The position numbers and the translations under genes were made by a program. Positions 48,409 through 53,190 of a DNA stretch of 64,000 bases are shown here, piece after piece. The notes under the pieces were generated by a model that was not told the origin of the DNA, ran no database searches, and saw only the letters and a list, made by a program, of their open reading frames with translations. The DNA is from Escherichia coli. Lineage in GTDB: Bacteria > Pseudomonadota > Gammaproteobacteria > Enterobacterales > Enterobacteriaceae. The DNA lies in assembly GCF_024298765.1 (NCBI RefSeq), contig NZ_CP101210.1; one strand, 5' to 3'. Within the stretch, counting starts at the first letter, position 1. Each line of letters starts with the position of its first letter.

Positions 48409-48602
48409 GTAACCTCCTATGCACCTTCACACGTCGTGATTCAGACGGGTTAATTGTTCATACTTACTGCATCGTTCCCTTCACAGATTGAAACAATACT
48501 CTACTTCATACCTGTGAGTATCTGCGCAGGCGGGGCATTTTATACTAGCCTGTTAGCAGTATCGAACAGTTTAGCCCGAGTTTAATTCAGCACAGGCTCC
48601 GA

Positions 48603-50117
48603 TCAGGATGATTTATTCATAGCAGGAACCAACAAAAATGCGATAAATAACAGACCACTGATTAGCAGAAAGGTATCCGAAAATGCCATAGTTTGCGCCT
48701 CCCTCAGCATCAACTGACTCAATAATTTGGTTGAAGCCAGTATTTCCGATGTCTGGTCACTTCCACTGCGATTAAAAAACAAAGCACTTCTGGAAATGAA
48801 GTCATTCACCGTATGGGGAACAGAAACCATTTTTTCACCCATTCTCGAAAAATGAAAATTAGTTCGATTATTGAGAATAGAGCCACACAGGGCAATACCA
48901 ATCGCGCCCCCAAGATTACGTGTTAAATTAAATACACCAGAGGCTAACTTCAGCCGTTCCTTTGGAATTCCCCCCAGCGTTAATGTTACGATGGGGGCCA
49001 TCGCAAACTGCTGCGAAATCCCTCTAATTGCCTGTGGAAACAGTAACTCCTGCCATCCCCATTCGTGGGTTATAGGGGTAAAAAGATACATTGAAAACAC
49101 AAATCCACCCAGCCCCGCCATCAACAGCCATCGCAGATTTATTTTTTTACTTAACCAGAAGTAAAAGGGAACAGAAAATAACTGGAAAATACCTGTTGTG
49201 CAAACGGCAAAACCTATCTCTTCGGCATTTAATCCGCGAACCTGCCCCAAAAACACAGGTATTAAATATACAGTAGAGAATATCCCAACCCCTCCAGAAA
49301 AAGAAAAAAAACATCCCAGCGTGAAATTTTTATCCTTAAAAGCATGAAGATCCATTATCGGATTGGATATTGTAAGTGTACGCGCAGCAAATAAAATAAA
49401 ACTCACCAATGCCAGAACTGATGTCAGCAAAATAGTATTATCATCCAGCCATCCCCAGCGCGCTCCTTCTTCAAGGGTATATTCCAGACATCCCAGTGTC
49501 ATGGCCAACAGGATAATACTCGGATAATCAGCAACTTTCAGTAAAGAGAGATCAGGTTTATCAAAATTAACCAGAAAAGGAATACTCAAAACTAAATATA
49601 TGCCAGGTAATATATTGATATAAAATAGCCATCGCCAGTCGAGGTTATCAGTGATCCAGCCCCCCAGAGTTGGCCCTAGCGTCGGTGACAGTGAGGCCAG
49701 CGCACTGACTACCGCAGCAGCCAACCCCAACTCTTTACCCTGGTAATAAATAAACGCCGTCGTGAAAACTAAAGGGATCATGGATGCGCCAGCCGCTCCC
49801 TGTAAAGCACGAAACAAAATCATGATCTGAATATTCCATGCAAGTCCACACGCGATACTCATTAAAGTAAATATTCCCGCGGATAGAGTAAAAAGCCAAC
49901 GAGTGGAAAATACCCGTGACAGCCACCCAGAGAGCGGAATAACAATAATCTCAGCAATTAAATAGCTGGTCTGAAGCCAGGCCATTTCGTCTTTACCTGC
50001 GGACAGACCACCACCTATTTCATTTAGGGATGACGATACAATTTGAATATCAAGCTGAGCAATAAATAATCCCATACACATACTGGCGAAAGCAATATGT
50101 TTACGCATAGACATCAT
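48603..50117 (-). CDS. MFS drug:H+ antiporter, DHA2 (EmrB/QacA-like, ~14 TMS)
   Basis: 504-aa polytopic ORF with MFS motifs; stop overlaps the upstream fusion-protein gene by 4 nt; AT-rich. Confidence 0.8.
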   Translation of the reverse strand: MMSMRKHIAFASMCMGLFIAQLDIQIVSSSLNEIGGGLSAGKDEMAWLQTSYLIAEIIVIPLSGWLSRVFSTRWLFTLSAGIFTLMSIACGLAWNIQIMILFRALQGAAGASMIPLVFTTAFIYYQGKELGLAAAVVSALASLSPTLGPTLGGWITDNLDWRWLFYINILPGIYLVLSIPFLVNFDKPDLSLLKVADYPSIILLAMTLGCLEYTLEEGARWGWLDDNTILLTSVLALVSFILFAARTLTISNPIMDLHAFKDKNFTLGCFFSFSGGVGIFSTVYLIPVFLGQVRGLNAEEIGFAVCTTGIFQLFSVPFYFWLSKKINLRWLLMAGLGGFVFSMYLFTPITHEWGWQELLFPQAIRGISQQFAMAPIVTLTLGGIPKERLKLASGVFNLTRNLGGAIGIALCGSILNNRTNFHFSRMGEKMVSVPHTVNDFISRSALFFNRSGSDQTSEILASTKLLSQLMLREAQTMAFSDTFLLISGLLFIAFLLVPAMNKSS

Positions 50118-51145
50118 CTCTCATCGACACTGACGGTGACGGACAGTCCCGGGCGAAGAAGTTGCTTTAATTCCTTTGCGTCGTCAAATGCAATCCGTAC
50201 CGGGACACGCTGAACAATTTTGGTGAAATTGCCAGTGGCATTTTCTATCGGAATCAAGCTGAAACTGGCTCCTGTCGCTGGGGAAAGGCTTTCAATGTGA
50301 CCGTGAAACACTTCCCCTTTGAGAATATCAGCACGGATCTCAGCCTTCATTCCTGGCTTCATTCCCGCTATTTGGTTTTCTTTATAATTTGCATCAACCC
50401 ACAACTCACTGACTGGTACAAGTGAAACTAACGATGTGCCGCCTTCCACCCAACTGCCTGTATGGGCGCTGCGGTTTGCGACAATGCCATCAATCGGCGC
50501 ACGAACAAGGGTATATTCCAGATCCAGTAGTGCCTGAGTCAAAGCGGCCTGAACTTCTTCGATACTCGCACGTACGTTTTCTTCCTGAGCAGATAAAACT
50601 GCCAGCCGTTGCTTCTCCACCAGGAAATCGTTCGCGGCTTTGCGCTCCTTTGCTGCGACCTGCTGGTAGTCAAACCTGGCGTTATCAATAATTTGCTGCG
50701 ATATTGCCGCTGATTGTACGAGTTTTTCATAACGTTCAGTATCTCGCAGGCGCTTTTGCTCCTCATGTTTTACTGCCTGCCATGTTTCACTGGCACTTTG
50801 AATTATCGACTGCTGCATCGTAATAGTGGCTTGAATGCTTTCGAGATTGGCTTTTCTACTTTTTATTTTTGCCTCAAGCCTGGCGACATTTGCACGATAA
50901 TCCCGATCATCGAGACGCAGGATAATATCGCCTTTTTTTACGCTCTGATTATCACGCACCTCTATAGCAGAAATATAACCAGAAACTTTACTTGCCACCG
51001 TGGTAATATTACCACCAATGTAAGCATCATCCGTCGTCTGTATAAATCTTCCTTTGCTTACCCACCAGATAAAAAAGACAACGCCAGCCAAAATAATACC
51101 GATCGCTACTACCCCAATAAGCTGTTTTTTAGAAATTATCATCAC
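50114..51145 (-). CDS. HlyD/EmrA-family membrane fusion (periplasmic adaptor) protein
   Basis: 343-aa ORF: N-terminal TM anchor, coiled-coil region, beta-barrel C-terminus typical of EmrA-type adaptors. Confidence 0.8.
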   Translation of the reverse strand: MMIISKKQLIGVVAIGIILAGVVFFIWWVSKGRFIQTTDDAYIGGNITTVASKVSGYISAIEVRDNQSVKKGDIILRLDDRDYRANVARLEAKIKSRKANLESIQATITMQQSIIQSASETWQAVKHEEQKRLRDTERYEKLVQSAAISQQIIDNARFDYQQVAAKERKAANDFLVEKQRLAVLSAQEENVRASIEEVQAALTQALLDLEYTLVRAPIDGIVANRSAHTGSWVEGGTSLVSLVPVSELWVDANYKENQIAGMKPGMKAEIRADILKGEVFHGHIESLSPATGASFSLIPIENATGNFTKIVQRVPVRIAFDDAKELKQLLRPGLSVTVSVDER

Positions 51146-51509
51146 TCTTTACACCGTATATATCCGGAAACTTGCATTCGCCATATTTAAAATTTAACAT
51201 GGCTTATTTGATGATTTCTGACAAAATACCTACTGTAAATGACAATCACACTGCAACCCAAAGCATCACCAGGGCATCACATTATCGGACTGGATTCGGA
51301 ACATCTGAATGGAGGCACAGTTCCCTGGCATAAACATCTCTATGCCCAGTTGCTTTACCCGGCTGAAGGAGTCGTTCGTGTATGGGCTGGAGAAAGCGTC
51401 TGGCTAGTGCATGCCAGCAGCGCGCTTTGGCTGCCCCCACAAATGCCGCATAAGTTTGTTGCGACAGGCAACGTACTTTTAAAAACCGTACTGGTTTCAG
51501 AAGCGGAAA

Positions 51510-52566: not shown

Positions 52567-53154
52567 AAGCGGAAAGTGAAACGCTGGGAAAAGTTTGCTT
52601 CATGACGGGTATTTCACCCCTGTTAAGAGAATTACTAATTGCAATTAACCAACTTCCACCGTCGCAAAGTACCACAGATAAACAACAGTTACGTTTTTCA
52701 GCCCTCGAGACACTGATACTTCAGGAAATAAAAATGGGGGTGAAAATGTCACTTGAACTCCCTTGGCCAAATGATGAGCGGCTACAGCAGCTTTGTGAGA
52801 ATTTGCTAAACAACCAAGGGTATCTGCCAACACTGGATAATCTAGCGGATAAAATTAACGTCAGTAGCCGTACACTCATGCGCTTATTTGTTAAAGAGAC
52901 GGGATTAACATTTCGCCACTGGGTTCAGCAAATGCACGTTATTTCTGCAGTGACGCTTCTTGATGATGGATATTCGTTGACCAAAATTGCCCATCGTCTG
53001 GGCTATGCCTCAGCTGAATCGTTCGGCAATATGTTTAAGCGTCGAACGGGCTACTCGCCCGGTAAATTTACTCGTCGATTAACGATGCATGATTATGCAA
53101 TCACAAGGCAAATGATTTAACTTATATTTTCGTGAAATCTGTCACTGAAGAAAA

Positions 53155-53184
53155 TTGGCAACGGATGGGTAAAACCGTTATAAC
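53155..53184 (+). promoter_or_regulatory. Sigma70-type promoter TTGGCA-N18-TATAAC for the downstream small RNA
   Basis: Read directly; places the transcription start near 53191. Confidence 0.5.
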
Positions 53185-53190
53185 ACTGTC

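Follow-up and report, generated by a model that had tools for sequence, protein, structure and literature searches.

The closest described relatives of the system treated here are EmrAB-TolC and EmrKY of Escherichia coli. Cryo-electron microscopy structures of EmrAB-TolC are available (8zal and 8zar; PMC13139468), and vesicles without EmrA or without TolC showed no antiport (PMC13139468). In the pump subunit EmrB, residues D29, R109, Q112, N403 and R406, assigned to proton coupling or the gate, are conserved and mutation-sensitive in resistance assays (PMC13139468). Another system, EefABC (plus EefD), is a pump of the RND type that is confined to E. coli lineages associated with infection and was found not to transport drugs (PMC12817139). 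Here we describe a three-gene cassette in a stretch of 64,000 bp from the E. coli contig NZ_CP101210.1 (assembly GCF_024298765.1), in the following called the window. The cassette lies between smrA and the small RNA gene mcaS and codes for an AraC-type regulator and, divergently, for an EmrA-like adaptor and a pump of the DHA2 family in the major facilitator superfamily (MFS). In our view it is probably a third, distant EmrAB-type tripartite pump with an AraC-type regulator, brought in by an old insertion, present in about 27 % of complete E. coli genomes and broken by IS903 in this strain. Literature text searches retrieved no published work on the cassette; their coverage was incomplete and an earlier description is possible.

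Relation of pump and adaptor to EmrAB and EmrKY

The pump gene (48603-50117, minus strand) is an intact open reading frame (ORF) for 504 amino acids according to the ORF list and profile searches. Its product obtained 404.8 bits (cut-off 230.2) with the DHA2/EmrB-subfamily model TIGR00711, covering residues 9-496 of 504, and failed the EmrB-specific model NF000391 with 219.1 bits versus a cut-off of 925. The top PDB match was EmrB 8zal (E=7.6e-56). Identities were 28 % to EmrB and 30 % to EmrY. Since EmrB and EmrY share 62 % identity, the cassette pump is an outgroup to both. In the alignment the five functional EmrB residues are kept as D23, R103, Q106, N397 and R400; EmrB D221 corresponds to E216. 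The relatives in Kluyvera and Paraburkholderia exhibit the same pattern of conserved residues. As aligned, a segment of about 60 residues has the same length as the periplasmic helix bundle of EmrB between helices 13 and 14, and 14 helices in the pump are suggested by its alignment from end to end with EmrB, a structure of 14 helices.

The adaptor gene of the HlyD/membrane fusion protein (MFP) type (50114-51145, minus strand) encodes 343 amino acids from a GTG start codon or 342 amino acids from an ATG at 51142. Its TGA stop codon overlaps the ATG of the pump gene within ATGA. The MFP profile TIGR01730 was matched with 134.4 bits (cut-off 94.9), and residues 6-341 align to EmrA 8zar (E=9.6e-43). 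A single hydrophobic helix is located at the N-terminus, residues 9-27. Residues 138-149, RYEKLVQSAAIS, match RxxxLxxxxxxS, the hairpin-tip pattern familiar from the literature on MacA and AcrA. MFP profile, N-terminal anchor and hairpin-tip pattern together place the predicted protein in the periplasmic adaptor superfamily. The score against the EmrA equivalog model, 205.4, stayed below the cut-off of 563.

In both EmrAB and the cassette, an adaptor gene is followed by a DHA2 pump gene in an operon without an outer-membrane gene. Both subunits align over their full lengths with a single N-terminal anchor in either adaptor, the five residues of EmrB are maintained and the segment between helices 13 and 14 has the length of the periplasmic bundle. 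The systems differ in sequence, with identities of only 28 % for the pump and 31 % for the adaptor, and neither cassette protein reaches the equivalog cut-off for EmrB or EmrA, respectively; EmrA is longer than the adaptor by 47 residues. EmrAB has the MarR-type MprA upstream, whereas the cassette has a divergent AraC-type regulator, and EmrAB belongs to the core genome, whereas the cassette is accessory. EmrKY shares architecture and family with the cassette (30 % identity for the pump, 31 % for the adaptor), but adjoins evgAS. By analogy, we infer that the cassette would function like EmrAB-TolC or EmrKY, as an orthologue of neither.

Uncharacterised cassettes in Kluyvera, Citrobacter and other Enterobacteriaceae are much more similar. 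They have the three genes in the same order and orientation and a conserved operator spacer, with amino acid identities of 68-82 % (AraC 79 %, HlyD 68 %, MFS 82 %). The pump orthologue of Kluyvera, 505 amino acids with 82 % identity, is collinear with the cassette pump through the final residue. These Kluyvera/Citrobacter-type cassettes differ from that of E. coli in their genomic contexts, in a GC content of 0.48 and in a regulator of 262 amino acids that lacks the E. coli tail. More distant relatives in Paraburkholderia (52 % identity) carry a gene for a NodT-family outer-membrane protein inside the operon. EefABC sets a precedent for an efflux system of E. coli that is lineage-restricted and missing in K-12 (PMC12817139), but it belongs to the RND superfamily, occupies another locus and has its own outer-membrane component; PMC12817139 is silent on the cassette. 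A literature search for lineage-restricted pumps gave no precedent other than EefABC.

In many complete E. coli genomes, some of them identical to the window, the RefSeq annotation by PGAP labels the pump gene as frameshifted (equivalent to 48662-50117); among the compared loci the label was seen on the equivalent coding sequence in L001, L002, L004 and L018. We reject this label, as the ORF is collinear with the 505-amino-acid orthologues and the alternative frames at the 3' end are full of stop codons. Truncated proteins of Shigella flexneri (484 and 488 amino acids, e.g., WP_162471458.1) end in ...AFSVPFC, and PFC followed by a stop is the out-of-frame ending at 48662. These truncated reference proteins are the apparent cause of the annotation. 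Other E. coli records annotate the 504-amino-acid pump as such.

The interrupted regulator and the predicted state of the pump

The AraC-type gene (51239-53120, plus strand), divergent from adaptor and pump, is interrupted by an IS903-type insertion sequence (IS) of the IS5 family. The element comprises 1057 bp with terminal inverted repeats (51510-52566, minus strand) and is bracketed by a 9-bp target duplication, AAGCGGAAA, at 51501-51509 and 52567-52575. It carries an IS5-family transposase gene (51566-52534, minus strand; NF033579, 357 bits), and near-identical copies of the IS are named IS903B by RefSeq. The 5' part of the regulator gene (51239-51509, codons 1-90) holds the cupin/AraC-binding domain, the 3' part (52576-53120) the linker and the HTH_18 DNA-binding domain, both assigned with Pfam; the latter ends in resident E. 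coli DNA. The break after codon 90 thus falls between the sensor and the DNA-binding domain. Excision in silico of the IS and one duplicate restored an intact ORF of 271 amino acids. In the rejoined protein, AraC_binding covers residues 27-88 (E=5e-8), Cupin_2 residues 25-83 (E=1e-6) and HTH_18 residues 180-258 (77 bits, E=1.4e-21). This combination of an N-terminal ligand-binding cupin and a C-terminal double helix-turn-helix assigns the predicted regulator to the AraC/XylS family. None of the 5426 complete E. coli genomes has the junction of araC and IS; the insertion is private to the window strain and is the sole private part of the cassette.

Between regulator and adaptor genes lies a putative divergent promoter/operator spacer of 93 bp (51146-51238) with a GC content of 31 %. 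It contains promoter-like hexamers on both strands, and sequence blocks in it, e.g., ATCATCAnAnAAGnCATGnTAAnTTTT, are common to the Kluyvera/Citrobacter-type cassettes. The unit would consist of a regulator with cupin sensor and of a divergent, translationally coupled pair, namely an EmrA-like adaptor and a DHA2 proton antiporter with 14 helices. A small-molecule ligand would cause the regulator to turn the operon on. By analogy to EmrAB-TolC, six adaptors would form a tube connecting a single pump monomer with the TolC trimer, and substrate would be expelled across both membranes against protons.

Most AraC-type regulators are activators. As the regulator is split by IS903, the structurally intact pump is most likely uninducible in this strain, and the hlyD-mfs operon would be silent if the regulator is an activator. 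The transposase gene runs in the direction of hlyD-mfs. As no terminator-like site was found on the minus strand from the transposase stop codon to the hlyD start, weak, regulator-independent read-through is possible; any expression of the pump here would stem from such read-through out of the transposase gene. An outward promoter of IS903 for the 3' fragment of the regulator gene was considered as well and discarded, as there is no promoter-like site on the plus strand near 52500-52600.

The original prediction, made from the letters of the window, had described a 504-amino-acid DHA2 pump coupled to a 343-amino-acid HlyD/EmrA-type adaptor with a divergent AraC-family regulator, and the ORFs, the ATGA overlap and the profiles bear it out. 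It had also recognized the disruption of the regulator by IS903, which the element of 1057 bp, its inverted repeats, the 9-bp duplication and the restored 271 codons confirm. The gene content agrees with its view of a self-contained accessory module without an outer-membrane channel gene of its own. That the module is not a characterised core operon is in line with its absence in K-12 and with the literature searches, which found no characterisation. The proposed likeness to EmrA and EmrB held, with the qualification that at 28-31 % identity the proteins are orthologues of neither EmrAB nor EmrKY.

The smrA-ogt locus, the distribution of the cassette and its probable old insertion

The cassette is flanked on the left by smrA (47845-48408, minus strand; NCBIfam, 252.9 bits). 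In BLASTN comparisons with K-12 MG1655, homology on the smrA side (98.5 %) stops at 48418 and restarts at 53085 to continue through McaS. The non-K-12 DNA at 48419-53084 consists of the 3,600-bp cassette and of IS903 with its target duplication (1,066 bp); in its stead, K-12 has 111 bp of the spacer between smrA and mcaS. Foreign DNA had been predicted here for 48409-53190, which is correct in substance and slightly too wide by K-12 homology. The spacer between smrA and the pump gene (48409-48602) is 100 % identical in CFT073 and in the uropathogenic E. coli (UPEC) 536, and 79 % identical in strain E69. Island DNA begins in it about 10 bp before the smrA start codon; consequently, the upstream region of smrA in cassette carriers is island DNA and unlike that of K-12.

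Without the IS, the cassette has a GC content of 0.442. Windows of 3.6 kb over the whole 64 kb have 0.486 +/- 0.022, and a value as low as that of the cassette is found in just 1.5 % of them. At third codon positions the GC content (GC3) is 0.40-0.42 in the cassette versus 0.50-0.59 in the flanking genes. The AT-richness announced by the original prediction is real but moderate. Further low-GC stretches occur in the window at about 24900-29400 (0.434-0.442 over 3.6 kb), at 40000-40750 (0.36-0.39) and at 59500-60000 (0.37). No integrase ORF at the locus was among the window ORFs, a tRNA search in 40-60 kb of the window gave no hit and repeats were not found at the boundaries 48419 and 53084. 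Of the classical features of a genomic island, integrase, tRNA/att site and direct repeats are lacking, and the atypical composition alone fits.

On the right, the small RNA McaS (53191-53286, plus strand) is resident DNA outside the cassette and was recognized in full length by Rfam RF00115 (112.8 bits). Its promoter and 3' part are identical to K-12. The 5' stem-loop reads ACCGGTCACCAGGACCCCAGGCCGGA in the window versus ACCGGCGCAGAGGAGACAATGCCGGA in K-12, with the GGA still in the loop. Beyond McaS, BLASTN against MG1655 revealed a 3' remnant of abgR (53287-~53505), which matches the final ~214 bp of the K-12 gene at 81 % only. At 53505 the match jumps to the final 149 bp of abgT (remnant at ~53506-53653), followed by ogt (97.3 %). 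Through this deletion of 5,040 bp, abgA and abgB are lost completely and abgR and abgT for the most part. Relative to intact abgR, the abgR remnant shows a divergence of about 24 % and contains two gaps of 1 bp each. Its substitutions, counted by codon position 1/2/3 in a test of an imported allele versus decay after the deletion, are 18/9/23. Left of smrA, the small RNA FnrS was found at 45141-45258 (minus strand; Rfam, 134.8 bits), as expected beside zntB.

In strain EC2257 the gene order is smrA, cassette, McaS region, abgR, abgA, abgB, abgT, ogt. The coexistence of the cassette with an intact abgRABT indicates that cassette gain and abg deletion are independent events. The sequence of EC2257 suggests recombination in or close to mcaS. 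The idea that the cassette stands instead of mcaS-abgRABT is not supported; McaS is kept, remnants of abgR and abgT are left and the deletion is a separate one.

Of 5426 complete E. coli genomes, 1455 (~27 %) carry the pump genes, always in single copy, and 1316 of these carriers have at least 80 % of them. The module had been proposed to be strain-specific. This survey and its occurrence in E69 contradict the proposal, and only the IS903 insertion is private. UPEC 536, strains of sequence type 131 and avian pathogenic strains are among the carriers. abgAB was found in 4202 of the 5426 genomes and the abg deletion junction of the window in 1169, including UPEC 536; E69 has the junction, too. 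Most cassette carriers lack abg, and at least ~230 genomes have both. Several alleles are inactivated. An internal deletion of about 1.85 kb joins the adaptor 5' end to the pump 3' end in CFT073 and NC101 (CFT073 locus 4459-5088), Shigella flexneri has a frameshift, and ISKpn26 and IS1 have inserted in strain FY10 and another strain. E69 (CP089930.1) contains the cassette at the same locus with 94-98 % identity and a frameshifted pump gene. Its flanking core genes have identities of only 84-94 % to the window, with 84-92 % for zntB, dgcM, ogt and uspE. The record is titled E. coli, yet E69 is a divergent Escherichia, probably another species or a cryptic clade.

Between the window and UPEC 536, synonymous divergence (dS) is similar for cassette (0.016-0.035) and flanks (0.041). 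The ratio of nonsynonymous to synonymous divergence (dN/dS) of the cassette is 0.10-0.18 versus 536 and 0.11-0.14 versus E69. Such values would be expected under purifying selection after either a long vertical co-inheritance or an old spread by recombination. Compared with its orthologues, the E. coli regulator has 11 additional residues at its C-terminus, and its final ~11 codons are in DNA homologous to the empty spacer of K-12, from 53085 onward. In the simplest reading, the right junction of the insertion coincides with the very end of the regulator gene, whose ORF reads on into resident DNA. In Kluyvera/Citrobacter-type Enterobacteriaceae, at least three further, unrelated chromosomal contexts harbour the AraC/HlyD/MFS unit. 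A scan with exact peptide words, using one genome per species, detected as other loci one in Kluyvera and five in genomes of the Burkholderia group. In a search for residual similarity, the island and the 111 bp specific to K-12 shared nothing but chance 8-10-mers. Taken together, the cassette appears to be an old and not a recent insertion. It would have entered between smrA and mcaS long ago in an Escherichia lineage and would now be an alternative haplotype, accompanied in most carriers by the separate deletion of the abg operon. For the predicted acquisition, composition and the favoured insertion speak in support, with the correction that dS values near those of the flanks make it an old one.

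Alternative explanations and implications

A recent, strain-specific island that replaced mcaS-abgRABT was suggested by the low GC and GC3, the absence of the cassette in K-12 and the missing abg operon in the window. This explanation is refuted by the 1455 genomes with the cassette at one locus, the shared cassette of E69 and the joint presence of cassette and abg in EC2257; the similar dS of cassette and flanks and the conserved McaS also speak against it. The opposite history, a cassette ancestral in Escherichia at this locus that was lost by K-12-type strains, without any insertion into an empty site, would account for the common locus in a divergent Escherichia and for the purifying selection. 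Moreover, a stretch of about 37 bp in the K-12 spacer, similar to the 3' end of the regulator gene, might be the scar of such a deletion. We consider such an ancestry unlikely, because the regulators of other genera end 11 residues sooner and the E. coli tail looks like read-through after an insertion. The unrelated contexts in Kluyvera/Citrobacter-type genomes, the GC3 difference between cassette and flanks and the sparse occurrence in the species scan also argue against it.

With respect to function, the several independent inactivations and the frameshift label in many RefSeq genomes might be read as signs of a decaying relic without a present function in E. coli, in which IS903 is one more step of pseudogenisation. 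The label is an artefact, however, most carriers retain at least 80 % of the pump genes, dN/dS is 0.10-0.18 and the catalytic residues are kept; a relic is therefore rather improbable. The pump may also not be a TolC-dependent multidrug transporter, but a dedicated exporter for an endogenous or host metabolite, or an inner-membrane transporter only. The distance to EmrAB, the ligand-sensing AraC-type instead of a MarR-type regulator and the example of EefABC, which proved not to transport drugs (PMC12817139), point in this direction. Biosynthetic or catabolic genes, however, are not consistently linked to the cassette, the adaptor features fit channel docking, relatives have an outer-membrane factor in the operon, and EmrAB-TolC vesicles need EmrA and TolC for antiport (PMC13139468). 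Such a specialised role has a low probability in our assessment. The preferred explanation, an EmrAB-type tripartite pump, has weaknesses of its own. TolC dependence and the logic of an activator are taken over by analogy. The family model with the best score for the adaptor is TIGR00998 (EmrA/EmrK), with 266.7 bits below the cut-off of 390.8; together with the 28-30 % identity of the pump to EmrB and EmrY, this makes the functional transfer loose. In a crude hydropathy scan of the pump the peaks overlapped without a clean helix count, which falls short of confirming 14 helices. The repeated natural inactivation in CFT073 and NC101, E69, Shigella flexneri and the IS-carrying strains suggests weak selection in many niches.

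A broader concept would treat the smrA-ogt region as an alternative haplotype, maintained over long times, that combines the gain of a ligand-inducible exporter, a variant McaS and the loss of abg, crosses species borders in Escherichia and is enriched in extraintestinal pathogens because its pump exports a specific compound from host or gut, not antibiotics. We regard this concept as speculative and do not expect it to hold as a whole. For the locus itself, the window is a clear case in which two independent structural variants, cassette gain and abg loss, mimic a single replacement. The cassette is easily missed, as its intact pump gene is listed by RefSeq in many genomes as a frameshifted pseudogene. 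In practice, the findings offer a modest gain, namely a correction of the annotation and a candidate for the phenotyping of efflux and tolerance. The knowledge on efflux in E. coli rests almost wholly on K-12, which is without the cassette, and about a quarter of the complete E. coli genomes carry what is probably an EmrAB-type pump with its own sensor-regulator, to which no function has been assigned.

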